Numbered from the stretch's first letter, positions 388-58,679 are shown. The stretch: DNA of 58,757 bases from a virus (IMGVR_UViG_3300046697_000245:1-58757), one strand, 5' to 3'. Notes: a model not told the origin generated them from the sequence alone. Made by a program: numbers and translations.

Positions 388-543
388 TTACAGGTTCGCG
401 CGCTCCGCAGCCAAACACTTCCGGCAGACCGGCTCGCGGCTGCTCTTGTTCTTGCCGCCCTTCTGGTTGACGAGAAATATCCAGGCGACCGCTTGTTCCT
501 CGCAGCGGCGGCACTTACGCCTGGTCTCCCTCTCCACCATCAT
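388..543 (-). CDS. Small CxxC...CxxC zinc-finger protein (51 aa)
   Basis: Manual translation MMVERETRRKCRRCEEQAVAW...EPVCRKCLAAERANL; ATGA overlap with the groES stop codon. Confidence 0.7.
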   Translation of the reverse strand: MMVERETRRKCRRCEEQAVAWIFLVNQKGGKNKSSREPVCRKCLAAERANL

Positions 544-1496: not shown

Positions 1497-1532
1497 ATTC
1501 AGGGTCTCCTTGGTTGGGTTAGTGGTCAGTGT

Positions 1533-17678: not shown

Positions 17679-20600
17679 CTACCGCGCCTGCCCTGCTTCC
17701 GTCTCGCCGCGGCCCTGGGTGATCGGCTGCCCATAAATCATCATCGTCTTCAGGCTGCACCAGGCGTCCGGCATCTTGTAGTTTGTGAACTCCACGCTCC
17801 AATACTCATCCGCCGGCGAGGTTCCCGGCGTCTTCCTTGTAATGCCCACATGCTGGTCCGGCGTCAGAACAAAATCATCCACCGGGACGGCGTTGCTCTT
17901 GCCGCCCGCGCCGTCGTCGCGATCGCGCGCGCCGTAGAATGCCGCGCTGATCCGGCCCATTCCGGTGGCGTTTAGGTTGAAGCCCTCCGGCTTGGCCACC
18001 GCCTGCATCCATCCCGCGCTCGATGTCCGGTAACGCCAGTCGATGCCCTCGCCATTGTCGTTGTAGATGCCCGGCGTCCGCGCCTGCACCGTGCCGTCAG
18101 CCGCGCTCGAGCCATAGAGCAGTTGCGTTACCCCAAAGCTCGAATCCGGCATCGTATCCCAGGCTGGCCCGTTCACGTATGCCGGCCCCAGCGGAAGCGT
18201 CCGCTTTACCCGCCGGATCACATTCGCCGAAATGTCGTTGAAGCTATAGCGCCGCGCCGCCTCCATCGTAATCTCATTCTGCATAAACGTGGAGAAGTGC
18301 AGCGGATTCTGCCAGCCCTCCAGATAACTCAAAAAGATCACCATATTGGGCGTCGTGCTCGCGCCCGTAGGCACAGAGACCAGCACCTGTTTGGTATTCT
18401 CGTCGATGTACACTTCGATGGTCTTCTTGGCCAGCCAGTTAATCTGCGACCACATCCGCGGCACTTCTTTGCTCATCAGATCGTCGTCGCCCTCTTCATA
18501 CTTGTAGATACCGGTCACATCCACAAAGATGATGAACTTGGCGCAGGCCGCCCAGGCCTTCGGTCCGCAGGCTCCATGGCCGCCGCCTGGGCCCTCGCCG
18601 CCCCAGCGCCGCGTCGCCCGCCAGCTTGAGGGGCTTGCCGTGTTGGGCGTCACGCTCCAGCCTGACCCTGAGCAAATGGCCATAAGCCCGCCCTTGAATT
18701 TGTCGGTAAATCCGTAGCAGGCCTCGCCATTATTCACAATCGGCAGCGGCCCGGTGTCGCCCCTGAAACTTTCCAGTTCGCCCGGAATCGAGAGCACACC
18801 GCCGTTGGTGTAGCCCAACGCGCCGGTCAGCGCCAGCACACCCGCCGTGTCCAGATAGTCCACCCTCACCGCCTCCGGCGGCGCCATCAATTGCAGCCGG
18901 TCGGTCACGTCGTTTGAATCCATCAGATAGGTGTCATCAAAGTTAAAGGTGGCCGAGGTGGTCACATTGTCCAGAATCAACGTGGCGGTCTCGGTTACAG
19001 TTCCACTCAACTGGGTTTGCGGATAGACCCAGTTCTGCTCTGTCGCCAGGATGTTCACACGTCCAATCCAGTCGAAAGGTCCGTCCACCGTGCCATCGGC
19101 CACCGCAAAAGATACTGCCCTGCCGATGGTATTGGCCGGCCCGGTCAGGATATTGAAGGCGGCCAGCTCCCAGCCATCCTCGTCCACCGTGCAGCTCGAG
19201 ATCGCCGCCACGGTAAAGCCGCTGAAATACTGGTTTTGGTTGATAAACACCGGCACGCCATAGCGATAGCCCTGGCTCCCGCCTATTCCTCCGGTTGTCG
19301 TGTCCATCGCAATGTTGCCGCCTGGCCCGGTGGTATTCGATGCGTGAGGATTCGGGCCGGTTGCGCTGTTCAGGATGAAGGGTGTGTCGGTAGGCTGATA
19401 ATAGCCGACCAGCGCAAATGCGCCCGGCAAAGGCGCTGAGCCTCCCGTCGGCACGTCGGCTTCGTAGATCCCAACCGAGGCAATGGTGTAAAGATCAACA
19501 TTGTTTTCGTCCTGAGGCACGGCCACCGTCACCATCACAGCATCATTGCTGTTTGTGTTGATGATGGCGGATGCGGGACCGGCGGGCGTCTCACCCGCGC
19601 CGTTTGTGTAGGTTTGGCGAAAATAGATGTCGCGCCCGGCTGGAAAGGTTCCCGTGGGCAGCGTGGCGGTATTTGCTGTCGGCGGCGGCCCGCTAGGGCC
19701 GGTCTCAGTGACGATAGGCGATGCGCCGAGGGCGTAGGATCCCACCAAGCCAAACAGTGTGGTGTCAGGGATTGGAGATCCCTCGTTCACGCCTCTGGAA
19801 TAGACTTTGACCCCGGTCACGGTTGGTCCATAATTGCTGGCAAGGCTGACTTGGACACCTTGACCGTCAATCGTGGTGGTGATATTCGCCAGTGCGCCAG
19901 GTGTCGTCTCGCCGGCCGCATTGGTCAGAGTCAGCAGAATATAGACGGTCTGCCCATGTGGAAACAGCCCCGCGCCGTTCACCAGGCTCAATCCCGGAGC
20001 GCCTGGAGGATTCACCGTGCTGCCCGCCGGAAATCTCTGAATATCCGGCATCGTATCCGGTATCGGCAACTGGCCCGGTGTGATGCGCGCGGTGGTCAGC
20101 GCCGGCGCGGTTACCGCGCTTGCGGCCGTTGCGGGGATGGTATAGTTTCCTCCCAGCGCCTCTCCCGCGGAGGCCTGCTCATAGGCGGTCTGCGACGGCA
20201 GCGGGTTGCCGCTGGCCACATCGGCTTCGTAAACATTCACGCCGGTAATCGCGTAGGGCGATACCAGTTGCGTCAGCCAGCCGGGCAGCGGATTGCCTAT
20301 CGCTGGAGCCGCGGGCATCGCCGCATTCACTCCCTGATTCGCATCTGTGGTGGTAATGGACGCCATCGCCCCAGCCGTGGTCTCGCCCATGCCGTTCGTC
20401 AGGGTCAGATAGACGCAGACCGTTTGGCCGGCCGGGAAGGTTCCACCGCCGTTTACCAGCGTCAGCACCGGCGCGGGCGGCGTGGGCAGCCGGTTGGCCA
20501 GCACCATCGTCAGCTCTTTCCAGATCACCCCGTTGTCGTTGTAGGTCTGGCCCTCGACCTCGTTGACAGGAGCAAAAGCTGGAGAATTTAAGCCGGTCCT

Positions 20601-21209
20601 TCCGGAGTTCAGCGCCTGGTAGGTGTGGCCATTGCCGCTGGGCGGCGTGGCGGGCGTGCAGACTTCACCGGCGCGCACAGCGATGTTGGGCTGCCAGTGC
20701 CAGCCAAAGGGCTTCATCCCCAGCGGCCACACCGTCAGCGCCCCAGGGTCAATCGCCGCCGGGGGAGAAAGCGGAATCTTCAAATCGCTGAATCCCGCAT
20801 AATATCGATTGGAGGCGCTCGCGCCCAGCATGTGCGCGCCGGCGGGCAGGCTGAGTCCGCCCGGCGTGGCCGGGAACGCAACACCGCGTCCGGAACCCAG
20901 CGGAAATTCATAGAAGAGCGTTCCCGCCTCATCGAAGCCGATAGGCCGCTCAAAGTAGGCGTCGAGGGCGGTTTGCGGCTGATGCACAAAGCCTTCAAGG
21001 CCGGTGATCGCGGCCTTGTTTGGTCCCTGGATGGCCAGGTTGATTCCAGCGCGGGTGCATCCGGAGGTCACACCGCCGTTGTCGCGCGTGAACTCGGTAT
21101 TGCGGCAAACAGTGGCGCATCCGGGCGGCAGGTTGGTTGGATCGTCACAGTCCACCTGCCCCAGCGACCGCTTGAACGGTTGGCCCTTCCCGCTAAACCA
21201 TAGTGCCAT
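17679..21209 (-). CDS. Large tail protein (nozzle/tubular-B-like) with three inserted repeat modules
   Basis: N-terminal DDPTNLPPG....CRN pattern; three FPxG...Y..LT.TNxxGET repeats; position after the adaptor. Confidence 0.65.
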   Translation of the reverse strand: MALWFSGKGQPFKRSLGQVDCDDPTNLPPGCATVCRNTEFTRDNGGVTSGCTRAGINLAIQGPNKAAITGLEGFVHQPQTALDAYFERPIGFDEAGTLFYEFPLGSGRGVAFPATPGGLSLPAGAHMLGASASNRYYAGFSDLKIPLSPPAAIDPGALTVWPLGMKPFGWHWQPNIAVRAGEVCTPATPPSGNGHTYQALNSGRTGLNSPAFAPVNEVEGQTYNDNGVIWKELTMVLANRLPTPPAPVLTLVNGGGTFPAGQTVCVYLTLTNGMGETTAGAMASITTTDANQGVNAAMPAAPAIGNPLPGWLTQLVSPYAITGVNVYEADVASGNPLPSQTAYEQASAGEALGGNYTIPATAASAVTAPALTTARITPGQLPIPDTMPDIQRFPAGSTVNPPGAPGLSLVNGAGLFPHGQTVYILLTLTNAAGETTPGALANITTTIDGQGVQVSLASNYGPTVTGVKVYSRGVNEGSPIPDTTLFGLVGSYALGASPIVTETGPSGPPPTANTATLPTGTFPAGRDIYFRQTYTNGAGETPAGPASAIINTNSNDAVMVTVAVPQDENNVDLYTIASVGIYEADVPTGGSAPLPGAFALVGYYQPTDTPFILNSATGPNPHASNTTGPGGNIAMDTTTGGIGGSQGYRYGVPVFINQNQYFSGFTVAAISSCTVDEDGWELAAFNILTGPANTIGRAVSFAVADGTVDGPFDWIGRVNILATEQNWVYPQTQLSGTVTETATLILDNVTTSATFNFDDTYLMDSNDVTDRLQLMAPPEAVRVDYLDTAGVLALTGALGYTNGGVLSIPGELESFRGDTGPLPIVNNGEACYGFTDKFKGGLMAICSGSGWSVTPNTASPSSWRATRRWGGEGPGGGHGACGPKAWAACAKFIIFVDVTGIYKYEEGDDDLMSKEVPRMWSQINWLAKKTIEVYIDENTKQVLVSVPTGASTTPNMVIFLSYLEGWQNPLHFSTFMQNEITMEAARRYSFNDISANVIRRVKRTLPLGPAYVNGPAWDTMPDSSFGVTQLLYGSSAADGTVQARTPGIYNDNGEGIDWRYRTSSAGWMQAVAKPEGFNLNATGMGRISAAFYGARDRDDGAGGKSNAVPVDDFVLTPDQHVGITRKTPGTSPADEYWSVEFTNYKMPDAWCSLKTMMIYGQPITQGRGETEAGQAR

Positions 21210-21301
21210 TGAGCCCACCCCAGCCGCCAAAGCGGCCCGTCACGCGGCGGCATCGTCTTCCCTGCCGCCGCTCACTGACTTCTGATCACCAGCCTCTGTT
21301 C

Positions 21302-22493: not shown

Positions 22494-23612
22494 TTAGCTC
22501 TTCGCCAGCTTCTCGCGCCCCTGCCGCCGCTCCTTCTGCTTGAGCAGGTGCTCCATCACTTCCTTGTAGTGCGCTTCATCCAGCGTGTCGATAAAACTCT
22601 CCGCCACGGGGAAGCCTCTTTTGACAGCCTCCACCGCGCAGTCGGCATTGTAGGGAGCCTTGCAGCTCGGGCACAGCAGCATCTCCGGGTCAATGGTGTT
22701 CTCCCGGCATACCGGGCAAATCTTGCGCGCTTCGGCGCTTGCGTTGGCGTTGGGCAGCCGCATCATCCACGGCGCCTTCTCCAGGTAGCCCACCTCCACG
22801 CCAAACTCGCCCCAGCGCCGCATCGGCTCGGTGATCGCGCTGCGCTTCTCCTCATCCTTCGAGTTGAAGCATTCATAAGCCTTCTGCGAGATCCGGTTCA
22901 GGTAATCCTTCTGCAGTTCGATGGTCTGGTTCAACATCTCGCCGAAATCATGCCTCACCAGCTTCATGGCCAATAAACCATTGGCGCCCGGAATCAGGTG
23001 TCCTTCAGGCACCAGCACCGTGCCCTTGCTCTTCTCCAGGCGCTGCTTGTCGAGCTCGTGAACATCGCCGTCGAAGATCAGCACCCCGCCCATCAGCGGC
23101 GCGCTGCCCGCCTCGGTCATGTGCTCCCGCCAAATGTGCCAGCAGACCATGCCCGGCCGCATGTAGCGCGGAGTCAGAGACGGCTGCGCCCAGCCTATCT
23201 CCACATACTCGGTGTGACCACCCGGTGAAAGCCAAAACTCCGGCTCGGTCACCGTCAGCACATGCCCTATGTGCTCCCGGCCGCCCCGCATAAAGAGCTT
23301 CTTGTTTCTCGTCAGCTTGTGATTTTCGTCGTAAATGCCGCCCCAATCAAAGGGAGGAACATTCACCTTCATGCCGCCGCCGATTTTGAGCCAGCAGGGG
23401 TTAAGGTTGATGATCGTGCAGGGCTGCATCGGTCCCTGCAGCCGCCCATCCTCGTTGCGAAACGTCTCCGCCTTCAACTGCTCGTGCAGCGCAAGCATGG
23501 CTGTCTGGTTGGCCTTGTTGGCCGCCCCCAAAGCCGTTTGCACTTTCAGCACTGCCTCCGGGCTCACCGGCTCACTTAGCGCGATCACTCGTTCTGCTAT
23601 TTGTTCCGCCAT
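22494..23612 (-). CDS. Hypothetical protein with C-terminal double zinc ribbon (372 aa)
   Basis: CPVC...CPSC; SD AGGGAGG. Confidence 0.75.
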   Translation of the reverse strand: MAEQIAERVIALSEPVSPEAVLKVQTALGAANKANQTAMLALHEQLKAETFRNEDGRLQGPMQPCTIINLNPCWLKIGGGMKVNVPPFDWGGIYDENHKLTRNKKLFMRGGREHIGHVLTVTEPEFWLSPGGHTEYVEIGWAQPSLTPRYMRPGMVCWHIWREHMTEAGSAPLMGGVLIFDGDVHELDKQRLEKSKGTVLVPEGHLIPGANGLLAMKLVRHDFGEMLNQTIELQKDYLNRISQKAYECFNSKDEEKRSAITEPMRRWGEFGVEVGYLEKAPWMMRLPNANASAEARKICPVCRENTIDPEMLLCPSCKAPYNADCAVEAVKRGFPVAESFIDTLDEAHYKEVMEHLLKQKERRQGREKLAKS

Positions 23613-30904: not shown

Positions 30905-31324
30905 TCAACTCTTCCACCAAATAACCTCTTGCGCGCGCCGCGCCACCAGGCCCGGCAAAATCTTTCCCTTCGCATACACCCAGCGCGGCAACTGCTCCGG
31001 AACCTGATCGATGCCATGCCTCAGCATCGTGCGCAGCCTGTAGATCCCCAGGTTGTAAATGAAGCTGGTCAGCGCGTCATACTGGCCTTGCGTCCAGCAT
31101 CCCAGCGCCGTCACCTGAGCCTCAAATCCGGCAATGTCCTTATCAAAAAGCGTTTCCGCATCAATCGCGGTGATTCCGTTCACGTAGAGGCCGCTTTCAA
31201 CCTCCGCGCCAGTGAGCTTATGGCCATAGCCGATGGTGGGGTTGCCGTTCGCGTCCAGGTAGATTCCGGTGCGCAAACCCTCCCACTCCATAATCATTGC
31301 CCGGCATGTTTCGCTCGACTGCAT
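30905..31324 (-). CDS. Endolysin, GH24 phage lysozyme
   Basis: EG....Y.D..G..TIGYGH triad; Q.QYDAL.SF.YNLG; LPGLVARRAQE. Confidence 0.95.
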   Translation of the reverse strand: MQSSETCRAMIMEWEGLRTGIYLDANGNPTIGYGHKLTGAEVESGLYVNGITAIDAETLFDKDIAGFEAQVTALGCWTQGQYDALTSFIYNLGIYRLRTMLRHGIDQVPEQLPRWVYAKGKILPGLVARRAQEVIWWKS

Positions 31325-33095: not shown

Positions 33096-33158
33096 CTCCG
33101 TCTCCTTTGTGCGTCCCGGCCATTACTGCCGAACCCGCGTTTGTGTTCCAACTGCCGG

Positions 33159-33278: not shown

Positions 33279-33301
33279 CCCCTGCCCCCGTTCCGCTTGC
33301 G

Positions 33302-36300
33302 CTACGGCACTGTGCTGCGTTCAAACAACACGTAATTCGTGCTGAGGGTGACGCTAGAAGAGCCTGTAAGCGTCACAGCAGACCATCCGCCAGCATACAT
33401 ATTGCTCGTCGGCAAACTTCCGATTGTTACGCCTGTGCCGCAAACTTCAACTCCGGGATTCCCAATATACCAGTGCATCTTGGTCCCGTCACTGTAAAGC
33501 GAAAGCATAGTCCATGCGAGTGTCGCCGCAGTACCACTGTCTGTGTAGGTTGAGCCGTACTGGCAGTACCAGTCATTCGGCACTCCATTTGCGCTGGATA
33601 GATAGAATCCTATCGCGGTCGTCCACGGATTCGCCGTGATCACGTGAACCAACCCCGCCTGATACGCTGAGGCGGTTGTACCCGGTAGTACAGAAGGATA
33701 TACAGCCGTTGACCATCTGTAAGCCGGAGCCGTGTTGAGCGAAGCGATGCTGTTAATACTGCCGTAGTAGGACGCCTCGCCTGCCCCTGACACTGTCCCA
33801 CTTGTCAATAGACAGTTCCCTGGATGGTTTGCGTCCAGGTTAGTCACCGATTGTGCAAATGCGTTCCCTGTTGGCGATCCTATAGGGGTTGCACCCACAA
33901 TGACACAGGTAAAAAAGTGGTCATCCAGCAGAGCCGTCGGACCACCCAAACTGCCGCTGTTAGGGAAGAACCCCGGCGCGTACTCAGGGTTGGTATATTT
34001 ATTTGAGCTTGCGGCTAGTTCCGGCACCTTTGTTGTATCCACGTTCACCGTGACTGTCCCAGTCGTCCCCCCCCCCGTTAAGTCGGTTCCCGCGGTGACG
34101 CCTGTGATCGTACCACCGCCTGCAAGCGCAGCGCAGCCAGTTGCGTTTCCGTTCGCCGAGATTCCCGTAGGCGCATAGCCTGTCGAGCAGGTTGACGGCG
34201 CAGCAGCCAGAGCCGTCGCTGTCGCGATATTCCCACCACTCGCGTTAATTAACTTCCCAGTAGAATCTGTCCCTAGAATTGTTGTAGAAACCGGCACAAC
34301 CAGCGGAGACGCTTGCGGAAAATATTGCTTAATCAACTGCGCGTAGGTGATGACTCTGACCGCGCCGCCCTTAGACGCGATATAAGCCATCAGCGAAGTG
34401 AAGTCGGCGGTATCCCACTGCTGTCCGTTTGTTGGCGTGGTCACAATGTCATGGAATATCATTGGGACAATCGAGTTAGTTGCTATGCCAGCATCCACGC
34501 AGGCTTCCGCCGCTGCAAGCGTGGTTTGAGTGGGTGGACCATCTATTCCACACGCTGGCATATTGTACTGGTAGCTTGTGGGATCAAATAGGTATGGAAC
34601 AGCCGTGTTATATAAAGAGGTCGTAGAGCGGGCAAGGTAAAAATACTTCGCCACTTCTTGCTCCACCACCGGATTATATGACCCTTGCGGGTAAGCGATT
34701 GAGCGGCTTCGATTCAGGTTATCAACATCATCCATAGCGAAGCACGCCCGTAGCTCCGCGTCGATGATAGCCGCTGGCAAGTACGCCAGAGCCGCATGAC
34801 TCTCAGTGTGGCATCCAATGTCCCATCCAAAATCATTCTGTAAAGATTTCAACTGGGCGCTGGTCATATAGCTTGCCTTGTTAATCATCGAGGTTATAGC
34901 AAAAGCGGTCGCCGGAAAGTTGTAGGGATACATCAGCGGTCTTACAGTACTCCAAACAGATTCATAAGCGTCATCAAAGGAGATGAGGATGGTCGCCTGA
35001 TTGTTTGGATTTGCAACCGCGTATAGTCCACCGAAACTGACGTTTACCACCGTTCCCGCTGTGCTGGTGGTTCCAACCCTGAATTTTGTTATTGTTGCCA
35101 GATTCGGAGAGCCAGTTTGAGAAAAGTAAGCTATCGGCAACGTAATAGAGTTCCAGCCATTAAACAGTGTTGAGGCTTGCAAATTCACCGGATTCGGAGA
35201 AGCAGCGTAATAGTTAGACCCATCCGTGAAGATGTAGCAACTAAGCTGTCCTAAATTCGCCACATTGTCTACGTAAAAATCTATTCGGATTCCCACGGTC
35301 CCAGCAAGACTAAGAGAGACCGTCTTATCCATCCTGGAAACAACAGCATTTGTGCTGGTGACTTTAATAGTCTGATTCCCGTTGAGAGTATTCACTGTAT
35401 CGTTTACGGGTGCGGTTCCGGTTGCCGTCACCCATTCCGTTCCGGCGCCCCCCTCAAAGAGAGACAGGACTGTACGATTCGCGGTGGAGAGTGGGCTGCT
35501 GCTTGCGGTGTGGAGCGTGTAATCTGTAGCTGTCGGTAGCTGGGTTGTTCCCACGTTCAGCGTGTCAGTAGTTATGTTGCCGCCGTTCAACAGGTTCAAA
35601 GCTACGCTAGATACAACTCCAGTCATTCCGCTATAACCGCCCGGAAGAATCTCAAAATCAGATGTATCGGCGCAGGTGATCGAAGAGGTCTGCGCGGTTA
35701 CTGTTCCTAAGACGACATTGGGAAATTCTACTCCACACTGAGACACAATGAGTGTCCCACTCGTCGCCGTCGCTGTCAAAACAAGCTGCACGCGATTCCC
35801 CGGCACTTGCAATGTCGGCGCATGGTAAGTGAGCGGGCCTGCTGTCGGAGTGCCTGTGGAGAGAGTAATGGTGCCATTTCCACCGCATGTCCAGCTTGTT
35901 CCCAATGTCCAGCCAGTGCAGGAATTGTCTATAGTTCCCACTGTCGAAGCAACCTGCGTATCCATTGCCAGAGAGCTTTGCATCGTCTGCGGAGTGGTCA
36001 GCACAGAGGATACCCCGCCCAGGTTTGCCAGCGCCACAGCCGCCGTAGTAGCGCCCGTGCCGCCGTTGGCTACGGTAAGCGGGTTACCTAAACTCAACCC
36101 CTCCATCTTCATTGACTTCGAAGCATCGCCGAGAGCCGAGCCGTCGCCCACGTTGATGTAGTTATTCGTACTGTCGATGGAGAAGCATACAGCAGGCATG
36201 GCTTGTGAGTTTTCTCCGCCTGATGCTGGATTCCAGCAAAGCGGACGTGTGCCGGGAAGCAAATCAGAAACCGGATATGGAGGTACGTTATATCCAAACA

Positions 36301-37900
36301 TCGCGGCGACGTGAGAGTACCCGTAAGCTCCGGCGTGCCATATTAACTCGCCAGTATCAGCATATGGATTCCCCGGTGTTGGCGTTGAATTTATTTCCGC
36401 TCCTCCGAAACCAAGGTCAGCAGCCCATCCATTTAGCGCAAGTTGGGGATTGGAACTTGTAAAAACACTATTCTGGTCAAGTCCGGGGCAGTTTCCGTTC
36501 GCGTTGCAGTTGAACTTCGGTAGTACAGCGCCGTTGTCTGTCATGGCCGCGTTGAAGAGCGGCGCGAGAATCGCCGTGCCACCGGGCAGAAAGTACCCAT
36601 TCGCTCCTGTGGTGAAAACTCCATCGTTATTGTCGGTGATGACCGTTCCTACATCGACGAGGCTGTCCCAGTAGGCTCCGGCTGGCTGAGTAATTCCCGT
36701 TGTGCTGGCCGACTTTCCTTGTCCCCGTTTCCAGGCTTCGACTGCATCATAGTCAGCCTTTGTCCCGCAGGTGAAAAGGCCATAAGCAGCACTCTTGTTC
36801 GTCGCCTGCACGATCTTCCAGCCGTCAACGTGCGCCTGTTCCCACACGGATTGGTAGTCAGCTTTTATCGCCGCCTGAGTGCAAGGCGCATTTTGTATCC
36901 TGTCCTGATCCCCGGCCAGAATCAGGAAGCCGGGATTGCCGGTGATAGCTGGGCTGATCGGATGCAGCACTGCCGCATAGCCGGTTGCAGCCAGATAGTC
37001 AATCACGCCCGGATGCACAAACACTGTGCCGTGATTTTTGAATTGAGGCTGCTGCATGATCTGGAACGGCAGATAGTTGTTCGCCGTGTAGATCGTGCCA
37101 CCAGTGCCGGTGCCGGTGTTGAGGGTGTACGCGAACTCGAATTGTGTGGTGGTCAGTCCCGTAGCCAGAACTTGGAAGAGGCAGACGCCGGTGATCTGGC
37201 AGTTACCGCCACCAGCCAGAAACTCCGGCGAAGCGAGCCATCCGGTGTCAATCCTATCGCCCGCCGCAAGGCCATTTACGCCGGAGTTTGTGACGGAGCA
37301 GATGGTCCCGTTGCAGCTAACAGCCGTGACGGTGATTGGAAGACTGAGATCGTGATTGTCGCTGCCAATATTCGAGTCGCCGACGACGGCATAAGTGGTG
37401 GTAGGAAGATTGTACAGAACAGCGCCCGCGTTAGTCCCAGCACAGGTCAGCACTCCCGTCGTGCCGTTGACGGAGCAGTTGGTCCCGTCGGGCTTCACGC
37501 CGCCCAGAATAGAAGTTGTGGCGATTGGCAGAGTGTAGCTAGTCCCAGCACAGGTCAGCACTCCCGTCGTGCCGTTGACGGAGCAGTTGGTCCCGTCGGG
37601 CTTCACGCCGCCCAGAATAGAAGTTGTGGCGATTGGCAGAGTGTAGCTAGTCCCAGGCTGCGGGCAGCTTGTGACTGGCGTCCACTGGTTCAGCCCCGCG
37701 TTGAGGCCATAAAGCGCAATCGGCTCAGGCGTTGCCGCGCTGGCTAGTGCAGTCGAACTGTTAGGGCAGGCGACAAATGCGTTTGCTGTGGTGCTCCAGT
37801 AATAGAGCGCCTGGCTGTTTGGCTGCACACCGATCACCTGCGCCCCCGCCATCGGCAGTAGAGCGACAAACCCGGCCAGTATTCTCAGCATCCGTCCCAT
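33302..37900 (-). CDS. Fibre/spike-like protein (1532 aa): signal peptide, SGNH-like domain, NodB-type polysaccharide deacetylase domain
   Basis: MLRILAGFVALLPMAGA|Q; YTLPIATTSILGGVK fibre repeats; VVGDS; ISFDD...IGCHTESH...AYPQG...IFH. Confidence 0.8.
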   Translation of the reverse strand: MGRMLRILAGFVALLPMAGAQVIGVQPNSQALYYWSTTANAFVACPNSSTALASAATPEPIALYGLNAGLNQWTPVTSCPQPGTSYTLPIATTSILGGVKPDGTNCSVNGTTGVLTCAGTSYTLPIATTSILGGVKPDGTNCSVNGTTGVLTCAGTNAGAVLYNLPTTTYAVVGDSNIGSDNHDLSLPITVTAVSCNGTICSVTNSGVNGLAAGDRIDTGWLASPEFLAGGGNCQITGVCLFQVLATGLTTTQFEFAYTLNTGTGTGGTIYTANNYLPFQIMQQPQFKNHGTVFVHPGVIDYLAATGYAAVLHPISPAITGNPGFLILAGDQDRIQNAPCTQAAIKADYQSVWEQAHVDGWKIVQATNKSAAYGLFTCGTKADYDAVEAWKRGQGKSASTTGITQPAGAYWDSLVDVGTVITDNNDGVFTTGANGYFLPGGTAILAPLFNAAMTDNGAVLPKFNCNANGNCPGLDQNSVFTSSNPQLALNGWAADLGFGGAEINSTPTPGNPYADTGELIWHAGAYGYSHVAAMFGYNVPPYPVSDLLPGTRPLCWNPASGGENSQAMPAVCFSIDSTNNYINVGDGSALGDASKSMKMEGLSLGNPLTVANGGTGATTAAVALANLGGVSSVLTTPQTMQSSLAMDTQVASTVGTIDNSCTGWTLGTSWTCGGNGTITLSTGTPTAGPLTYHAPTLQVPGNRVQLVLTATATSGTLIVSQCGVEFPNVVLGTVTAQTSSITCADTSDFEILPGGYSGMTGVVSSVALNLLNGGNITTDTLNVGTTQLPTATDYTLHTASSSPLSTANRTVLSLFEGGAGTEWVTATGTAPVNDTVNTLNGNQTIKVTSTNAVVSRMDKTVSLSLAGTVGIRIDFYVDNVANLGQLSCYIFTDGSNYYAASPNPVNLQASTLFNGWNSITLPIAYFSQTGSPNLATITKFRVGTTSTAGTVVNVSFGGLYAVANPNNQATILISFDDAYESVWSTVRPLMYPYNFPATAFAITSMINKASYMTSAQLKSLQNDFGWDIGCHTESHAALAYLPAAIIDAELRACFAMDDVDNLNRSRSIAYPQGSYNPVVEQEVAKYFYLARSTTSLYNTAVPYLFDPTSYQYNMPACGIDGPPTQTTLAAAEACVDAGIATNSIVPMIFHDIVTTPTNGQQWDTADFTSLMAYIASKGGAVRVITYAQLIKQYFPQASPLVVPVSTTILGTDSTGKLINASGGNIATATALAAAPSTCSTGYAPTGISANGNATGCAALAGGGTITGVTAGTDLTGGGTTGTVTVNVDTTKVPELAASSNKYTNPEYAPGFFPNSGSLGGPTALLDDHFFTCVIVGATPIGSPTGNAFAQSVTNLDANHPGNCLLTSGTVSGAGEASYYGSINSIASLNTAPAYRWSTAVYPSVLPGTTASAYQAGLVHVITANPWTTAIGFYLSSANGVPNDWYCQYGSTYTDSGTAATLAWTMLSLYSDGTKMHWYIGNPGVEVCGTGVTIGSLPTSNMYAGGWSAVTLTGSSSVTLSTNYVLFERSTVP
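37432..37656. repeat. Exact 108-bp tandem duplication in the fibre gene
   Basis: TSYTLPIATTSILGGVKPDGTNCSVNGTTGVLTCAG twice, identical at DNA level. Confidence 0.95.
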
Positions 37901-37996
37901 CGCACGTTCTCCTCATTGGAGTATTCAGTGGCCAGCTATCAGAGATCAGCTGATCTTTATGACTGAAAACCGATAACTGACCACTGTCAACCGTAC

Positions 37997-39964
37997 CTAG
38001 TTGCCGGCGCACATCCACTGGATCACGTCAGACGCGCCAGTGGTGTCGGTGATGGTGGCCGTGGTTCCTGATGCCGGAACCATCTGCACCGGGTTAGTCC
38101 TGGTCGTCACATCGTTGGCCGTGCAGAAAAACGTGCTGGTCGATGTGAACGTGTTCGGGAAGGTGATGGTAGCTGTGCTTCCACTTAATGTTGAGCTACC
38201 CACGTAAATCTGCTGCTTGCCGTTGGCTGCCGACGGGGAGCATGTCTGGTTGCCGGTGCCGGTTGCTCCGCAAGAGAAAACAGGCACCAAACCACCGGCA
38301 TAAACCGCCAGCGTATCCGTGATGCTTCCCAATGCGCCGGTCGGAGGAGCCAGCGTAATCGTGCCGCTGGTGGCGTTGTTGAAGATCGCCTGGCCAACCG
38401 CACTCCCCGCCGTACCCAACACCAGCGATGCTGTCGGAGTAATTGTGATCGGCTGCGTGAACGACTGAGCCAGGTTCAGCTCTGCCACTGTGCCTGTGTT
38501 TGCAGGCAGCGTCGCCGTCACGCTTCCCAGCGCGCCCGCCGCCGGTGCCAGAGTCACCGTGCCGCTGGTGCCATTATTGAAGATCACTTGACCAACCGCG
38601 CTGCCGGATGTACCTAGAACCAGCGATGCTGTCGGAGTAATTGTGATCGGCTGCGTGAACGACTGAGCCAGGTTCAGCTCTGCCACTGTGCCTGTGTTTG
38701 CAGGCAGTGTCGCCGTGTAAGCGGCTGTGGACGTTGCCGGGGTAAGGCTGACGCTTCCGGCCGCCCCACTGGAATTGATCTTCAGGATGCCCGTTGTGGA
38801 TCCAGCCACGCCAAAGTTGGTGGTGGCCGCGCTGAATACGTTGGCGGCCGAGAAGGTGTTAGCCACCCCCAGCATGGCGAAGGTGTCAGCCGCGCCCAGC
38901 ACTGGAATGGTGGCGGTGTAACTGCCGGTGGGTGTCGTCGCGGGCTGAATTGTGGTGGTAAAGGCCGCGCCCGAGCTATACAGCCTCAGCGTTCCGGTCG
39001 TGCCGGCGGATACGCCAAAAGAAGTTACAGCGTTCTGAAAATTATTGATCGCTGTGTACGTGTTGACTCCCGCCAAAGTGGGCGACGCGCCAACACCCGC
39101 CACGGCGTATACCGTGCCCGACCATGAGTACCAGGTCCACGGCGTGGTGGTGGTATCAACGATCTGCACCTTGGTCGAGCCTGGCGCGGCCGTGGAGGTA
39201 ATCACCGTATTGGTGACCTGCGGCCCCGGCAGTGCGGCCATCTGCCTATACCAGTTGGCGTCCAGCATCACATTGGTCTCATACGTGGTTCCGCCAAGGT
39301 TGGCATTGTTTTGCAGCGCCTCGTAGAGGCCGGCGGTCCCTGAGCTTACCCAGAAAGTTACATGGCTGTTCGTTGGCGAGCCGTTGAATCCGCACGTCGA
39401 TCCGGTCAGGCTGGTGCTCGATGGAGTGAATACCTCGCTCAGTGCGGGCGTCGCATCGCGGATGTACTGTGGATATGGATGCGCGGTCGGGCCAAAGACA
39501 AAGAACGGCGATGCTCCATTGAGCGGCGTCACCGCGCAACTGCCCGGACTCGGTGCTGATCCCATGCTCCAGGTGTAGGTATTCGGCTGCTGCCCCATCA
39601 GGTTGCTGTACGCATAGTCCGTTGCCCATGCAAAGCGCACCTGCACCTGCTGCGCCGATGCCACCGCGCTGCTCAGCAGCAACGCCATCAGCAACATCAC
39701 GGCCACCACGGTGCTCTTCAGGCCGTTCACGGCCACATGCCGCAGCTCGCGCACCTTCATCAGCGGGCCGGCCTTCTGATCCGCGGCCTCCGGATCCAGA
39801 TAGACCAGGTCCACATGCTCCTCTACCGGCAGCACATTGCCGTCAAGGTCTTTCATCGGCTGGTTATTCGCCGGGTTATGGGGAGCAATCTCAATGCTCC
39901 GCGCGACAAGTGCGCTTACCACTTGCCCCTTAGCCTCAATCTCTACCACGTCGCCATATCTCAT
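37997..39964 (-). CDS. Fibre-like protein (655 aa) with internal signal/TM segment, 66-aa repeats and a gp53-like C-terminal domain
   Basis: SD AAGGAG; VVAVMLLMALLLSSAVASA|QQ; ~89-bp identical repeats at 38421 and 38619; TITFPNTF...IQWMCAGN end. Confidence 0.75.
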   Translation of the reverse strand: MRYGDVVEIEAKGQVVSALVARSIEIAPHNPANNQPMKDLDGNVLPVEEHVDLVYLDPEAADQKAGPLMKVRELRHVAVNGLKSTVVAVMLLMALLLSSAVASAQQVQVRFAWATDYAYSNLMGQQPNTYTWSMGSAPSPGSCAVTPLNGASPFFVFGPTAHPYPQYIRDATPALSEVFTPSSTSLTGSTCGFNGSPTNSHVTFWVSSGTAGLYEALQNNANLGGTTYETNVMLDANWYRQMAALPGPQVTNTVITSTAAPGSTKVQIVDTTTTPWTWYSWSGTVYAVAGVGASPTLAGVNTYTAINNFQNAVTSFGVSAGTTGTLRLYSSGAAFTTTIQPATTPTGSYTATIPVLGAADTFAMLGVANTFSAANVFSAATTNFGVAGSTTGILKINSSGAAGSVSLTPATSTAAYTATLPANTGTVAELNLAQSFTQPITITPTASLVLGTSGSAVGQVIFNNGTSGTVTLAPAAGALGSVTATLPANTGTVAELNLAQSFTQPITITPTASLVLGTAGSAVGQAIFNNATSGTITLAPPTGALGSITDTLAVYAGGLVPVFSCGATGTGNQTCSPSAANGKQQIYVGSSTLSGSTATITFPNTFTSTSTFFCTANDVTTRTNPVQMVPASGTTATITDTTGASDVIQWMCAGN

Positions 39965-40004
39965 CGTCGCTCTCCTTGGTCCGTGTTCACTTCATTCACA
40001 TTCT

Positions 40005-42032
40005 TTACAGCGGCAGCTCAACCCAGGAGTGTAGAACCGGCGTTGGACTGGTTCCATAATTGGCCAAAGTCACGCTGTACGTGTATCCCGCGGGTACGAG
40101 GAACGTCACGGTGGCAAGGCTGGGCCCGGCGGCATCGCAGTTGTAGACGCCATTTGCTCCGACGTTGACGCCGTTGCTCCACCCGGTGATGACGAATCCA
40201 GAACCAGTGCATGCCTGATCCTCGCTACCAACAACTTCAACCAAGATTGGCATTGCGCCCGCAGTATAGGGTGAGCCAAATGCGCGCGACGAGGTGACAT
40301 TCGTCTGGGTGACGCCCAGCGCAGCACCGTTGGTTGCCGCTGTCACTCGCCCATCCGCACCTACGGTGATGTTCGAGTTGGTGTAGCTCCCGGCCGTGAC
40401 GCCACTATTGGCGATGCCGATGGTGGTTTGTGCGGGCTCGGATGAGTCGGTTACTGAGAACTGCGTTGAGAAGTTGAGGACGGGCCGCTGATTCTGCGCT
40501 GTTCCGTCGCTGGCGACTGTATGGTAATAGATTGAGCAGTCAGCTGGGGTGTTATAAGCCGTGCCGTCCGATATCAGGCATTGGCCCGCTGTTCCGCCGT
40601 CGCTGTTCAGCAGGTAGCCGCCTTTAGCGTTCACCTGCCCCAGCGTTCCTGCGCCCTCCACATCCACGCCCCAGACCGGCGTTGCCGTGCCCACGCCTAT
40701 CATGCCCACGCTGTAAAGGTTGTAACTGGACAGGCTGATTGAGCTGGTGATCGATTGTGTGTTGTGATTATAGGGAGTGGTCAGCACCGGGATAGGATAG
40801 GTTGTCGAGCCATTCCAAAGCGGCATCCCATTCGCCAGATTGTAGGTCGAACCCGGTCCTAGAAACTGTACCTGCTTGGGAAAGCCCGGCAGCGCGTTCC
40901 CGCCGGCGTCCAGCAGTGTTGCCATGTAACCCGCAATCGGCCATGCCGCATCGTTGGCCACCGCCTGGCATACCGTGCCATTGATAATCGGCGGAGCCGC
41001 TCCGGCAGCCAGTGGAGTTGTGATCGTAAAGCTCGCCGTCGGGCTGACGGTCTGCCCCTGGTAGGCCAGTGCGCCGCCCTGCAGGCCGATGTAGATATTC
41101 ATGCCCAGCGCCTGCGCCGGCGCGCCACTCACCGGCGGCGAAATGGTAAAGCCGCCCGCGCTTGTCAGTTGCTTGTTGACCACCGGGCTGGGCAAGGTCT
41201 CATGCCCATAGGTGTCGTACCAGGTAATCTGTATCTGATAGTTTCCGCTGGGCAGCGTTCCTGAAAAGAGCGCCGCGGCCACCGCTGAAGTCAGCGGGTT
41301 AAACAGTCCCACCACCGCTCCGTTCCTGTCCGTGGAACAGTTTGCGGAGCTAACCGCAACCATCGTGCCGCCCACATACATCACTTGTGTCGGCGTCAGG
41401 TTGAGCGCGTAGTTAGCCGCCGGCATCCCGTTGGCGCTGCCAATGTGCCCCGTCAGGCCCACATAAGGCGGCGTGTACTGCGCCAGGGACGGAAGCACAA
41501 CCGCCAAACAAAGCAAAGCGTGGAGCAGCGTTCCCCGCGCCGCTCCACGCCCCATGGCAACCAGATTCCCAACCGGATCAGATTTCATCTTCTCAGCTTC
41601 TCCCCGCGTTGTCAAGCGCCCGGTCTTCCGCCATCTGCCATCTTTGCAAGCCTCGTCGCACTCATTACCACAGGCCGCCCAATCCTGGCCACCCATGTCC
41701 AGGCCGCACATCGCCACCGCGTCACTGCCCAGCGCCGGCCTTCCACAATGCCGGCAACGCCTGAACTCCGTCTCCAGCACACGGGGATTACCACCCGCCT
41801 CGCGGTCCGTGCGCTCCAGCAGACGCGCATCGCCCGGCAGCAGCCACACAAACTCTTCGCCGGTGCTCAAGCCCCTGATCGCCCGCTTGCGCGCCCATTC
41901 GGGTATCGCGATCAGCTCCGGCTCCACTCGCCGCGCCATGCGCTGGCGCCGCTCCTTGATTCCCAAAGCCTGACGCCTTGCCTTCGCCGCTCGCCGCGCC
42001 TTCCGGCGAAAGAAAACTGCCCGCTCACTCAA
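40005..42032 (-). CDS. Tail fibre with signal peptide, in frame with an N-terminal basic Cys-rich region; second start likely at ~41588
   Basis: LLHALLCLAVVLPSLA|Q; GVTAGSYT..ITV.ADGRVTAA shaft repeat; NVTSSRA.G..YT...PI.V...FLVPAG.TYSV...W.EL fibre tip. Confidence 0.75.
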   Translation of the reverse strand: MSERAVFFRRKARRAAKARRQALGIKERRQRMARRVEPELIAIPEWARKRAIRGLSTGEEFVWLLPGDARLLERTDREAGGNPRVLETEFRRCRHCGRPALGSDAVAMCGLDMGGQDWAACGNECDEACKDGRWRKTGRLTTRGEAEKMKSDPVGNLVAMGRGAARGTLLHALLCLAVVLPSLAQYTPPYVGLTGHIGSANGMPAANYALNLTPTQVMYVGGTMVAVSSANCSTDRNGAVVGLFNPLTSAVAAALFSGTLPSGNYQIQITWYDTYGHETLPSPVVNKQLTSAGGFTISPPVSGAPAQALGMNIYIGLQGGALAYQGQTVSPTASFTITTPLAAGAAPPIINGTVCQAVANDAAWPIAGYMATLLDAGGNALPGFPKQVQFLGPGSTYNLANGMPLWNGSTTYPIPVLTTPYNHNTQSITSSISLSSYNLYSVGMIGVGTATPVWGVDVEGAGTLGQVNAKGGYLLNSDGGTAGQCLISDGTAYNTPADCSIYYHTVASDGTAQNQRPVLNFSTQFSVTDSSEPAQTTIGIANSGVTAGSYTNSNITVGADGRVTAATNGAALGVTQTNVTSSRAFGSPYTAGAMPILVEVVGSEDQACTGSGFVITGWSNGVNVGANGVYNCDAAGPSLATVTFLVPAGYTYSVTLANYGTSPTPVLHSWVELPL

Positions 42033-43383: not shown

Positions 43384-44559
43384 TCAGTCCCTGGTCCCGA
43401 GGCCCTTGATCTTCGCCGCCCAGGCCTCCAGCATCTCGCGCCGCTCAGCCGCGTAGGCTGCTCGATTGTACACCCCGCGCACCCCGCCAATCTCGTGCCC
43501 TAACGCCTTTTCCACCACCTCAGCCTTCCATCCCGCCTCGGTCAGCAGCGTCGACGCCGTGCGCCTCAAGTCATGCACCGTGAAGTGCTCCACATGCGCC
43601 GCCCGCGCCACCTTGGCCAGCGTCCGGTTCAGCGCCCCAGCCCACAGCGGCCACGTCAAAGCCTCCCGGCCAGGCAACACCATCTCCACCCGCGGCCCCT
43701 GCATCGCGCGCAACTCCCGCAAACACTCCAGCGATCCATCGCTCAGCGGCACCAGCATCTCCCGGCCCATCTTCGTCCGCCCCGCCGGTATCACCCACTC
43801 CGCCCGCTTCAAATCTACCTCCACCCAGCGCGCCAGCCGCAACTCGCTCTTGCGCACCATCGTCAGCAAAAGCAGCCGGATCGCGTGCCTGTGCGCCTCC
43901 GGAACATTGCGTAATTTCTGCTTGAGTGCTCTTAATACCCGCCTCAGCTCTTCCTCGCTCAGCGCCCGATCGCGCGCCTTGCGCCGCGCCACATAGCGCA
44001 GCGGAGTGGATATTGCCGGGTTGCTGTCGGCCACGCCGCAGACCATCGCATAATCCCAAACCCGCTTGCACAGGCCGCGCAACTTGGCCGCCGCCGCCGG
44101 CCTGCCCGCTTCCAGCTTCCCAAAGATCAACGCCTGCAGCTCCCGCGCCGTCACCTTGTCCATCGGCCGCGCGCCCAGCCGCCGCACAATCTCCCGCTCC
44201 AGCGGCCTGCGCACCGCCGCCATATCCTTGCGCGCCCCGCGAGCTTCCAGGTTCTTCAGGTAGCGCGCCGCAAACTCCTTCACCGTCACCCTGGCCCCGT
44301 AGCCCTGCCGCCGCGCCTGCTCCACGCTGCGCGGATCCTCACCCTGAGCCAACGCCTCCGCCAACTCCCGCGCCCGCTCCCGCGCCGCCGCCAGCGTCAT
44401 CGCCGGGTAGGCGCCCAGCGTGATTCTGGTTGGCTGACTGCTGGCGGCTGACTGCTGGCTGCTGTACCTCCACCGCCAACTCTTTCTCCCCGTAGGCATT
44501 ACCTCCATCTCCAAGCCTTCGCCAAAACCCTGAGTATAGCGGCTCTCGCGAGTCTTCAA
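43384..44559 (-). CDS. int: Tyrosine recombinase/integrase, P4-like with arm-binding domain
   Basis: G.GL...V...G.KSW..RY, ITLG.YP...LA.AR; catalytic R (VRKSE), K (TKMG), HDLRRT, LGH, YN. Confidence 0.93.
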   Translation of the reverse strand: MKTRESRYTQGFGEGLEMEVMPTGRKSWRWRYSSQQSAASSQPTRITLGAYPAMTLAAARERARELAEALAQGEDPRSVEQARRQGYGARVTVKEFAARYLKNLEARGARKDMAAVRRPLEREIVRRLGARPMDKVTARELQALIFGKLEAGRPAAAAKLRGLCKRVWDYAMVCGVADSNPAISTPLRYVARRKARDRALSEEELRRVLRALKQKLRNVPEAHRHAIRLLLLTMVRKSELRLARWVEVDLKRAEWVIPAGRTKMGREMLVPLSDGSLECLRELRAMQGPRVEMVLPGREALTWPLWAGALNRTLAKVARAAHVEHFTVHDLRRTASTLLTEAGWKAEVVEKALGHEIGGVRGVYNRAAYAAERREMLEAWAAKIKGLGTRD

Positions 44560-56999: not shown

Positions 57000-58679
57000 T
57001 TACCGGTTTTGGCTTTGCGGCGCAGACGCGGCCGCCGCCGGCGTGTAAACCGCCGCCTCGCTGGTCAGCACCAGGGCGGCAATTGACACCGCCTTCTCCA
57101 GCGCCACCCGCACCACCTTCACCGGGTCCACAATGCCACTCTCCATCAGATCCTCGTAGTGGCCCGTCGCCGCGTTCAATCCGTAACTGTCGCCCGGGGT
57201 GCTGTATTCAAGGCTTTTTTTCACCTCATCCAGCGCCACGTCAGGGCTGATGCCGGCGTTGGATGCAATCTGCCGCAGCGGGGCTTCAAGCGCCTCAATC
57301 ACCACCTCAACGCCCATCCGCGCCGCCTGGCTCATCTTCCCCAATTCATATTCACGCGCCTTGATGGCCTGCGCCGCCTTCAGCAGCGTGATGCCGCCGC
57401 CCGGCACCACCCCCTCAGCCTTGGCCGCCTTGGCGCTGTTGACCGCATCCTGCACCCGCGCCTTCGTCTCATCCAGGGCTGTGCGCGTCAGGCCGCCCAC
57501 ATGCAAAATCACCACACCCTCGCTGAGCCGCGCAATCCGCTGCGAGAGCATCTCCTTCTCAAAGTCGTCATCGGTGGCCGCGCGCAGCGTGCGCAGCTCC
57601 TCGGCCCGCTGCCGCGCCGCCTCCACAATCTCATCCTTGCCTTTGGCGGCATGTTCCACGCCCACTTCAATCAGCTCTGTCCGGTCGGGATGCACCACCG
57701 CCAGCGCGCAACTTCCCAGCTCCTTCAGGCCAAAACGAGATAGAGCGTTGCCCATATCGGGCGAGTAGACCGTTGCCCCGGTCGCCTCGGCCAGATCCCG
57801 CAGGCACTCCTTGCGCCGCGCTCCCACCCCCGGCGCCGTCACCGCGCAGCTTTGCAGCGTGCCCCGCGCCACGTTATGCACCATCATCGTCAGCGCATCG
57901 CCAGCCACCTTCTCCGCCACCACCAGCAGCGGCCGCCCCGTCGGCGCCACACACTCCAGCAGCGGCAGCAGGTTCATCGGGCTGTTCGGCGTCCTCGGGT
58001 CCGCCTGCGCAACCTCCCGCTCGCTCAGCAGGATGTAAGGCCGCTCCAACACACAGTCAGCGCCCCGGTTCACAAAGGCCGGATGCACCCAGCCCGCATC
58101 CCACTGAAAGCCCTCGCGCAACTCTGAATGCGTCTCCCGCCCCAGCGCGTCATCGATGATGACCATGCCTTCCGGCCCCACCCGCTCCACCGCGTCGGCT
58201 ATATGGCGCGCAATCTCCGCATCGCCGTGCAGGCTCACCGTAGCTGTTTGGGCAATCAGTTCCGGAGTGGCCTCTATCCGAGCCTCGGCAATGCGCTCCT
58301 GTGCCCACCCGGCAGCAACTTTCAGCCCTTCGGCCAGCTCCAGGCGATCCACCCCGCTGGCCACCAGCTGCATTCCCTTGTGCAGCATCGCCGCGGTCAG
58401 CACCACCGCCGTCGTGGTGCCGTCGCCAACGGCTTCATCGGTGGATGCCGCCACCTGCCGCAGCAGGCGCGCCCCGGCCGCCTCCAGCGGCTCCTCAGGC
58501 TCAATCTCCTTCACCACCGATACCCCATCCAGCGTCGCCCGCGGCGCCCCAAACGCACTGCAAATCAGAACGGGCCGGCCCTTGGGCCCCAATGTCGTCC
58601 GCACCGCCTCCGCCACCGTCATCACACCGCGCATCACCGCCTCGCGCGCCTCATTGCCCTTCGCTATCTTGTTTGACAT
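57000..58679 (-). CDS. groEL: Chaperonin GroEL (divergent Cpn60)
   Basis: TLGPKGR, GDGTTTA, APG.G..RK..L.DLA..TG, GVVPGGG, P.RQIA.NAG, GI.DP.KV.R.AL..A.S.A; no GGM tail. Confidence 0.95.
   Translation of the reverse strand: MSNKIAKGNEAREAVMRGVMTVAEAVRTTLGPKGRPVLICSAFGAPRATLDGVSVVKEIEPEEPLEAAGARLLRQVAASTDEAVGDGTTTAVVLTAAMLHKGMQLVASGVDRLELAEGLKVAAGWAQERIAEARIEATPELIAQTATVSLHGDAEIARHIADAVERVGPEGMVIIDDALGRETHSELREGFQWDAGWVHPAFVNRGADCVLERPYILLSEREVAQADPRTPNSPMNLLPLLECVAPTGRPLLVVAEKVAGDALTMMVHNVARGTLQSCAVTAPGVGARRKECLRDLAEATGATVYSPDMGNALSRFGLKELGSCALAVVHPDRTELIEVGVEHAAKGKDEIVEAARQRAEELRTLRAATDDDFEKEMLSQRIARLSEGVVILHVGGLTRTALDETKARVQDAVNSAKAAKAEGVVPGGGITLLKAAQAIKAREYELGKMSQAARMGVEVVIEALEAPLRQIASNAGISPDVALDEVKKSLEYSTPGDSYGLNAATGHYEDLMESGIVDPVKVVRVALEKAVSIAALVLTSEAAVYTPAAAASAPQSQNR

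Follow-up and report, generated by a model that had tools for sequence, protein, structure and literature searches.

The virus record IMGVR_UViG_3300046697_000245 of IMG/VR is a linear stretch of 58,757 bases (hereafter the window, meaning this whole stretch), in which the minus strand carries nearly all long open reading frames (ORFs). Three that follow each other, ORF675, ORF655 and ORF1532, named after their lengths in amino acids (aa), are predicted to serve the phage in host recognition and to be modular in build, ORF1532 being a long fibre that contains a sugar-deacetylase domain and the other two being fibres. Comparison with related genes indicates that all three are very probably exported and folded oxidatively. 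We further propose, holding the chances of this to be about even, that these modular proteins are exported via the Sec system, fold with disulfides in the periplasm and meet the phage particles at lysis. The coordinates of the features discussed are collected in Table 1.

An earlier inspection of this DNA (hereafter the sequence-only reading) had described three consecutive ORFs of 1532, 655 and 675 aa with Sec-type leaders, fibre motifs and close Cys pairs. The three ORFs were confirmed as described, their leaders end in a small-x-small pattern before Gln, and the quoted motifs and Cys pairs are present. Leaders were called by simple rules of our own and by reading of the sequences, and on this basis a charged n-region, an uncharged hydrophobic core and small residues at -3 and -1 were recognised in each of them. 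In ORF1532 the leader, MGRMLRILAGFVALLPMAGA, occupies residues 1-20 and is followed by Q; a GAGGAG Shine-Dalgarno sequence lies 8 nucleotides (nt) upstream of its well-placed ATG. The leader of ORF655 spans approximately residues 83-104, ending with STVVAVMLLMALLLSSAVASA before QQ, and is preceded by an N-terminal part of 82 aa, the ATG of which has an AAGGAG Shine-Dalgarno sequence; the best ribosome-binding site of this gene is that of codon 1 of the long ORF. In ORF675 the leader (residues 160-184, ending with LLHALLCLAVVLPSLA before Q) stands behind an N-terminal part of 148 aa, and in-frame ATGs are found at codon 149 (41588) and codon 160 (41555). The leader is at the N-terminus of the product in ORF1532, and in ORF675 only if translation starts at 41588 or 41555, while the best start of ORF655 is 82 residues upstream; in most homologues the leader is N-terminal. 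The crude leader rule flagged 8 of the 69 minus-strand ORFs of the window, mostly membrane proteins of the lysis block, and the classical leaders ending before Gln among these eight were those of ORF1532 and of a 153-aa protein (1565..1104); the leaders of ORF655 and ORF675 start too deep in long ORFs for this rule. By the same rule, the other large proteins of the window have no leader. The predicted leaders of the three ORFs are more than a chance occurrence. A lipoprotein signal on ORF675 was also considered and dropped, because there is no lipobox before the Cys in the leader.

A survey of homologues for conserved signals, suggested along with the sequence-only reading, found that leaders are kept in each of the three families. 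The search with ORF675 gave 47 proteins at E<=1e-3, one of which is the window's own. In 42 of the remaining 46, the conserved mature start Q-Y/F-x-A/P-P-Y comes directly after a hydrophobic stretch that is free of charges and has small residues at -3 and -1; of the other four, two are clipped and two have their leader in front of another mature start. When 1.84 billion cluster representatives were searched with the profile of the ORF675 family, matches numbered 919 at E<=1e-3, of which 523 remained at <=1e-10 and 300 at <=1e-30. Twenty of the 145 new 50%-cluster representatives listed are N-terminal fragments, and 109 of the other 125 pass the crude leader test; the 16 that fail it mostly have a visible leader or a clipped start. 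Related loci were 14 in number (12 viral loci and two contigs of metagenome-assembled genomes (MAGs) with an integrase) and were retrieved only by an alignment-based search, single-protein scans of viral contigs having returned no relatives. In 10 of these loci, 13 ORF655-like genes begin directly with a classical leader (M-R/K and then A-x-A before Q), and the leaders of the ORF1532-like genes end before Q-V-I-G or Q-G-I-V in 8 cases out of 8. In the homologues of all three ORFs the mature N-termini are conserved and the leader sequences are divergent, which is the pattern of a cleaved signal.

The cleavage site before Gln, also predicted in the sequence-only reading, is conserved as well. 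Gln occupies +1 in each of the three window proteins; among the 64 leader-bearing hits of the ORF655 search, 48 have it there, and it directly follows the leader in 15/15 aligned ORF655-type sequences covering this region. A Q-rule for substrates of signal peptidase I is described as specific to Bacteroidetes (PMC5837995; PMC10653852), and the main text of the former nowhere mentions "Acidobacteria". The related loci include MAG contigs named Terracidiphilus and Acidobacteria bacterium, and the phage, an uncultured one from soil, probably infects Acidobacteria. Its setting differs from that of the Bacteroidetes rule, which it resembles in the Gln at +1 of the three proteins and of most homologues. 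In 363 kb of the two Acidobacteria MAGs with related loci, there were 40 crude leader calls among 290 ORFs; Gln was at +1 in 12 of these 40, as compared to 3.9% Gln overall, so that this host sample, as seen by a crude detector, is enriched in Gln without reaching a majority. A glutaminyl cyclase (PF05096, 318 bits) is encoded in one of the two MAGs, a candidate host, which is a further likeness to the Bacteroidetes rule. These observations are hints that a habit similar to the Q-rule exists outside Bacteroidetes.

The number of cysteines points in the same direction as the leaders. The mature Cys count is even in 42/42 ORF675 relatives (range 4-14), in 64/64 leader-bearing hits of the ORF655 search, in 6/6 complete ORF1532-like genes of the related loci and in 11 of their 12 complete ORF655-like genes, the odd one being a shortened paralogue; kinship among the sequences inflates these counts. 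The variable C-terminal parts, though of different kinds, still keep even numbers, whereas odd counts were found in 5 of the 8 large leaderless window proteins that contain Cys. The mature products of the three ORFs themselves contain 6 (ORF675), 6 (ORF655) and 31 (ORF1532) cysteines, and close pairs in ORF1532 are at 196/201, 234/240, 465/471 and 661/672. The 60-aa N-module of ORF1532 has exactly two Cys in 9/9 sequences, and the partner of the invariant Cys is at one of two places (alignment A2). As the sequence-only reading supposed, the cysteines thus look like disulfide partners, and their even counts point to disulfide folding outside the cytoplasm. Leaders and paired cysteines taken together make it very probable that the three proteins fold outside the cytoplasm.

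No Pfam or PHROG fibre family matched the window proteins directly, and neither collection gave any family for ORF655 and ORF675. Leader-bearing members of the ORF675 family end in Gp53-like_C tail-fibre tips or in a glycine-rich domain, and Peptidase_S74 forms the end of one ORF655 search hit that also bears a leader (both Gp53-like_C and Peptidase_S74 above their cut-offs). In ORF675 itself, a 34-aa stretch is 73.5% identical to an annotated tail fiber protein of Pseudanabaena phage Pam2, and the AlphaFold2 (AF2) model, with a predicted local distance difference test (pLDDT) value of 65 overall and confident at approximately residues 40-260, consists of beta-sandwich domains. The model of ORF655 gave no match at E<=0.001 in Foldseek, and neither this protein nor the protein P0041 had a tblastn match in cultured phages. 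P0001, a homologue 98% identical to ORF655, contains one extra repeat of about 66 aa (721 vs. 655 aa), which means that the number of repeats varies among near-identical phages. In all three families the N-terminal part is kept and the C-terminal part is swapped among the 14 related loci. Receptor-binding proteins that attach to a conserved partner are usually built in this way, and the three proteins do resemble modular receptor-binding proteins, as the sequence-only reading had them.

ORF1532 is unconserved among homologues downstream of its N-module. A match to Phage_head_fibr (20 bits) is below the cut-off of 24.6. The polysaccharide deacetylase domain scores 50.7 bits against a cut-off of 23.1, and the region also matches deacetylases of the PDB (E 4e-5). 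Within the domain there are F-D-D, H-T-E-S-H and F-H-D stretches, which may hold the metal-binding Asp-His-His and the catalytic residues of CE4/NodB deacetylases. In 90 records of cultured phages, residues 761-1203 match genes whose annotation is "minor tail protein" or "glucosaminyl deacetylase". As to the N-module, it is present in the 9 loci where the ORF675 homologue has the full start Q-Y-x-A-P-Y-V and absent from the 5 where this start is shorter, an association that is confounded because the loci are related to one another. When the N-terminal part of ORF675 and the N-module of ORF1532 were submitted together to complex prediction, the score was 0.48, as compared to 0.00 for the best of 3 controls; the runs agreed in at least 77% of contacts and the partner pLDDT was at least 63. 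This mark is reached by 58/80 solved complexes and by 2/110 mismatched pairs, and with a score of at most 0.60 by only 7 of the 80 solved complexes and by both mismatches. The model lends weak support to a pre-assembly of the two parts.

The sequence-only reading had also suggested that the in-frame domains in front of the leaders of ORF675 and ORF655 may regulate export. Of its whole interpretation, the leaders, the Gln cut site, the disulfide-like cysteines and the modular receptor-binding build are upheld, and this suggestion is not. The 148-aa part of ORF675 corresponds to a separate Zn-ribbon gene that has its own stop codon in 10/10 related loci and is a separate stretch by tblastn, located in the same frame with one stop between, in another frame, or 1.4-4 kb away. 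Its relatives stop just past "...KDGRWR", where the window reads on, and the fused form is also present on a second contig of the window's protein cluster. C93, C96, C121 and C125 are invariant in the alignment of this extension (A4). We found no family or structure match for the Zn-ribbon gene beyond generic zinc-ribbon noise, and no usable match for either N-terminal extension in the ESM Atlas. This gene adjoins the integrase side, and only in the window's lineage is its stop lost, so that it reads into the fibre gene through a hairpin. The 82-aa part of ORF655 is fused in 7 close homologues (P0001-P0004, P0006, P0008 and P0009), with linkers of varying length, is a separate ORF in locus L010 and is absent from the 13 leader-first genes mentioned above. 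Being separate or absent in relatives, both extensions are dispensable to the leader and to the fibre; as judged from the compared loci, both are neighbouring genes that were fused in frame in the window's lineage. An internal start, or cleavage past the leader, would release the same mature fibre, and this may explain why such fusions are tolerated.

The gene order on the minus strand is integrase, methylase, ORF675, ORF655, ORF1532, four to five small membrane proteins, lysozyme and head block. ORF675 and ORF655 are separated by 40 nt, ORF655 and ORF1532 by 96 nt, and the genes downstream overlap or almost touch. The order of fibre genes, lysis genes and conserved head-gene block, tight and in the same orientation, is kept in locus L010. 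An RNA hairpin followed by a U-rich run lies in the part of ORF675 that codes for the leader. With 17 pairs, its stem is the longest among the terminator-like sites of the region 30000-45500, where 19 such sites were found as compared to 12.4 ± 4.3 in shuffled sequences. Its minimum free energy is -46.8 kcal/mol (z -3.1; 1 of 200 shuffles equally stable), with a z of only -1.6 when a longer segment is folded. At the same position of the gene, a hairpin with a U-run of different sequence is found in L004, L014, L002 and L008 (z -6.4, -3.2, -3.1 and -4.0, respectively, with mononucleotide shuffles), and L004 and L014 differ at two stem positions with pairing kept. No hairpin stands out in L003, L005, L007 and L015 (z +1.0 to -0.25). 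We regard it as a lead that the hairpin may separate the integrase side from the block of fibre, lysis and head genes, either as a terminator or by masking a start, and such a function would fit late expression of the block.

The canonical tail fibres and tailspikes of tailed phages are leaderless and are assembled in the cytoplasm. The proteins described here are like them in the conserved N-terminal and exchangeable C-terminal parts, in the motif common to the annotated Pam2 tail fiber, in the Gp53-like_C and Peptidase_S74 tips of family members and in an enzyme domain common to minor tail proteins; they differ in having Sec-type leaders and mostly even Cys numbers (with ORF1532 at 31). No description of exported tail fibres of tailed phages was found in the literature searched, which left most subscription journals uncovered. 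A parallel is offered by Cellulophaga phage phi18:3 (Pachyviridae, NC_021794), in which gp085, gp086 and gp087, encoded just upstream of the endolysin, have leaders ending before Gln; the record, "based on experimental MS/MS proteomics analysis" (MS, mass spectrometry), annotates them as structural proteins of the virion or tail proteins. Nine other virion proteins of this phage detected by MS have no leader. The leaders of the three are not known to be discussed in print. The likeness extends to three consecutive proteins (547-785 aa) upstream of lysis genes, a short-tailed phage, giant virion proteins and GroES. However, gp085, gp086 and gp087 hold 0, 1 and 3 Cys in all and thus have no disulfide signature, and the host belongs to Bacteroidota, not Acidobacteria. 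Since there is no detectable similarity except in GroES, phi18:3 is a functional parallel and not a homologue.

Two further systems are instructive. The MAT fibres of Bdellovibrio bacteriovorus are described as having a signal peptide, directly followed by a conserved beta-rich N-terminal domain, and then the fibre with variable tips, of which some carry an S74 chaperone (PMC10769870). According to this account, trimeric fibres of phage type can be made via an export route; compared by description, they differ from the present case in that a predatory bacterium encodes them on its chromosome and displays them on its cells, whereas here the genes belong to a phage late operon. As for phages of P. 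gingivalis, PMC10367356 reports proteins of unknown function with host-type leaders, read as surface modifiers, and suggests that the "signal peptides" of capsid proteins are removed by prohead proteases.

In the mechanism that we prefer, each protein would be a late product, like those of the lysis and head genes, and would bear a host-type Sec leader. The Sec system would carry it across the inner membrane and signal peptidase I would cut before the Gln, which may cyclise to pyroglutamate. Folding in the periplasm would place all cysteines in disulfides, and the proteins might pre-assemble there through their conserved N-terminal parts. They would meet the cytoplasmic, fibre-less particle only once cytoplasm and periplasm have been joined by the action of the holin and the leaderless lysozyme. 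The leaders and their conservation, the pattern of cysteines, the modular architecture and the order of the genes are seen directly in the sequences. We infer export, cleavage and late expression of the three proteins; attachment to the virion, argued by analogy, is the least certain step. Attachment at lysis would nevertheless be the most likely fate, on the basis of gene order, modular build and the annotation of one cultured phage. More tentative is a joint scheme in which the whole host-recognition apparatus would be extracytoplasmic: a branched periplasmic complex of the exported, disulfide-bonded proteins, with the N-module of ORF1532 on the first domain of ORF675, would be attached to fibre-less particles only once the holin opens the membrane, and read-through of the hairpin in the leader sequence would switch on the block.

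Several points weigh against periplasmic maturation and attachment at lysis. A periplasmic fibre would have to find particles efficiently at lysis. The leader calls depend on a crude rule and on reading, below SignalP grade; the leader of ORF655 may be internal and could be an uncleaved anchor; and the odd count of ORF1532 leaves one unpaired Cys. Virion association would be an extension from phi18:3, whose parallel is known at the level of record annotation and not of leader removal seen in peptides, and tblastn of the 69 window ORFs against 28-71 kb of its record matched only GroES (E 0.002). Structure comparison gave for ORF675 only Ig/FN3-like pieces of phage structural proteins, at template modelling (TM) scores of 0.1-0.2, and for the mature N-terminal domain of ORF655 (pLDDT 80-90) only Z 5-6, to N-terminal parts of tailspikes and tail complexes. 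Finally, a 1183-aa protein (21230..17679) has no family match, and the three fibre-like proteins may not be the sole receptor-binding candidates.

The strongest rival, which we consider rather unlikely, is that the proteins are exported by the same evidence but never join the virion, being released or envelope-bound fibre-like enzymes and adhesins that modify or mask the host surface polysaccharide, for example by deacetylation that blocks superinfection, frees progeny from debris or alters the lysogen surface. The deacetylase domain of ORF1532 would suit such a role, and there are precedents in the cellular MAT fibres (in the description given by PMC10769870) and in the leader-bearing proteins of P. 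gingivalis phages, as interpreted in PMC10367356. The genes also adjoin the integrase and methylase, a common site of conversion genes. Lysogenic-conversion genes would be set apart from the late genes by a promoter and terminator of their own; here the spacing to the lysis genes is tight, and pattern scans, which are no evidence of function, showed no strong terminator downstream. The three genes are, however, packed with the lysis and head genes, and a strong terminator-like hairpin stands between them and the integrase side. Kept N-terminal and swapped C-terminal parts fit docking on a conserved partner, as in virion fibres, the family was met only in phage-like contigs (the 12 viral loci and the two integrase-bearing MAG contigs), and the leader-bearing proteins of phi18:3 are annotated as found in virions.

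A second alternative, which appears improbable, concerns at least the fused ORF655, which might be an inner-membrane protein with a cytoplasmic Tudor/SH3-like domain, an uncleaved span and a periplasmic fibre, acting as a tether or sensor. The long ORF with the best ribosome-binding site, a hydrophobic stretch of about 17-20 residues, long for a leader, and a fusion kept in 7 homologues with varying linker length and no stop would all agree with this. Every fused form nonetheless keeps the A-x-A site before Q, a plain leader comes first and the N-terminal domain is lacking in 13 homologues in 10 loci, and L010 has the domain as a separate ORF. Moreover, the small beta-barrel finds Tudor/SH3-like matches, including RNA-polymerase-binding Tudor-like domains, at a middling Z of 5-7, and values below 8 are common by chance for small barrels, as the fold-search tool itself notes. 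Still less probable is that the leaders do not serve export but are start-codon artefacts, hydrophobic assembly segments or pro-peptides cut by a cytoplasmic phage protease, since, although export is here predicted from sequence only and prohead-protease substrates are suggested in the passages on P. gingivalis phage capsids (PMC10367356), the leader property is kept without sequence conservation across hundreds of clusters, with host-like -3/-1 residues, Gln at +1 and even Cys counts close to universal, the ORF1532 leader begins at a well-placed ATG with a Shine-Dalgarno sequence, and the other large window proteins have no leaders.

Table 1. Positions of the features discussed, counted from the first base of the window.
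Feature	Position	Strand	Description
ORF675	42032..40005	minus	675 aa
ORF675 in-frame N-terminal extension, codons 1-148	41589..42032	minus	basic; four conserved Cys (C-x2-C ... C-x3-C), Zn-ribbon-type
ORF675 leader, if the start is the ATG at 41555	41481..41555	minus	MGRGAARGTLLHALLCLAVVLPSLA, predicted cut before Gln185
RNA hairpin and U-rich run	41514..41554	minus	16-17 bp; starts at the ATG of codon 160, within the leader-coding part of ORF675
Mature ORF675 (predicted)	40005..41480	minus	491 aa, 6 Cys; conserved beta-sandwich N-terminal part, variable C-terminal part with tail-fibre motif (alignment A1)
ORF655	39964..37997	minus	655 aa
ORF655 N-terminal domain, residues 1-82	39719..39964	minus	small beta-barrel, predicted cytoplasmic; AF2 pLDDT ~78
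ORF655 internal leader or membrane span	39653..39718	minus	residues 83-104, ASA before Gln105; aligns with the N-terminal leaders of homologues
Mature ORF655 (predicted)	37997..39652	minus	551 aa, 6 Cys; conserved alpha/beta N-terminal domain, shaft repeats of ~66 aa, tip with two Cys pairs
ORF1532	37900..33302	minus	1532 aa
ORF1532 leader (predicted)	37841..37900	minus	residues 1-20
ORF1532 conserved N-module	37661..37840	minus	mature residues 21-80; two Cys in every homologue
ORF1532 variable body	33302..37660	minus	duplicated fibre motifs at residues 86-99 and 122-135; many Cys pairs
Polysaccharide deacetylase (NodB/CE4) domain, ORF1532 residues 965-1086	34643..35008	minus	PF01522
Small membrane proteins and leaderless phage lysozyme	30905..33324	minus	directly after ORF1532, with overlaps or short gaps; membrane spans
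Phage lysozyme, leaderless	31324..30905	minus	Phage_lysozyme, E 9e-29
TerL (large terminase)	3755..2103	minus	phrog_979, E 5e-26
GroES	1037..540	minus	family support
GroEL	58679..57000	minus	family support
Integrase	44559..43384	minus	family support

Elsewhere in the window, family support was also obtained for methylases, including a C5 methylase. Ten putative head and tail proteins were scanned with Pfam and PHROGs; nine were left without a family, and a 372-aa protein (23612..22494) had only matches to Prok-RING_1 and PHD below the cut-off. Sequence searches of the PDB with the proteins of 1183 and 847 aa, the TerL-like one and that of capsid size yielded no useful match, and tblastn against cultured phages found no match for the 1183-aa protein or for the 847-aa protein of portal size. 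With no family or PDB match, the labels "portal", "scaffold" and "capsid" are guessed on the basis of protein size and gene order. The completeness of the record is 89% by the CheckV estimate. GroES (540-1037) and GroEL (57000-58679) are at opposite ends of the contig in operon order, which suggests a nearly complete, circularly permuted phage genome; the idea that the ends consist of host DNA was dropped, because this order across the ends fits a permuted circular phage genome. The 153-aa protein between the terminase and GroES (minus strand) has a classical leader ending in A-Y-A before Gln and a coiled-coil-like C-terminal part, and a homologue is found in L015. A 3012-aa protein (4534-13572), with a ddrB-like ParB domain at residues 758-890, follows proteins of 212 and 489 aa (15522-16160 and 13963-15432, respectively); size and order of these three are reminiscent of the phi18:3 virion proteins gp120, gp121 and gp123, and no sequence similarity to these was found.

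Tailed-phage assembly is taught as a cytoplasmic process. If the fibres of this phage do mature in the periplasm, the final step of assembly would take place at or after lysis, and the fibres could gain stability in soil from disulfides and a blocked N-terminus. The heterologous production of such receptor-binding proteins would then need an export route, and annotation pipelines that take a signal peptide to mean "not structural" would misjudge whole families of phages. The ORF675 family is large, with its 919 cluster representatives at E<=1e-3, and the cultured phage phi18:3 gives a direct test case.

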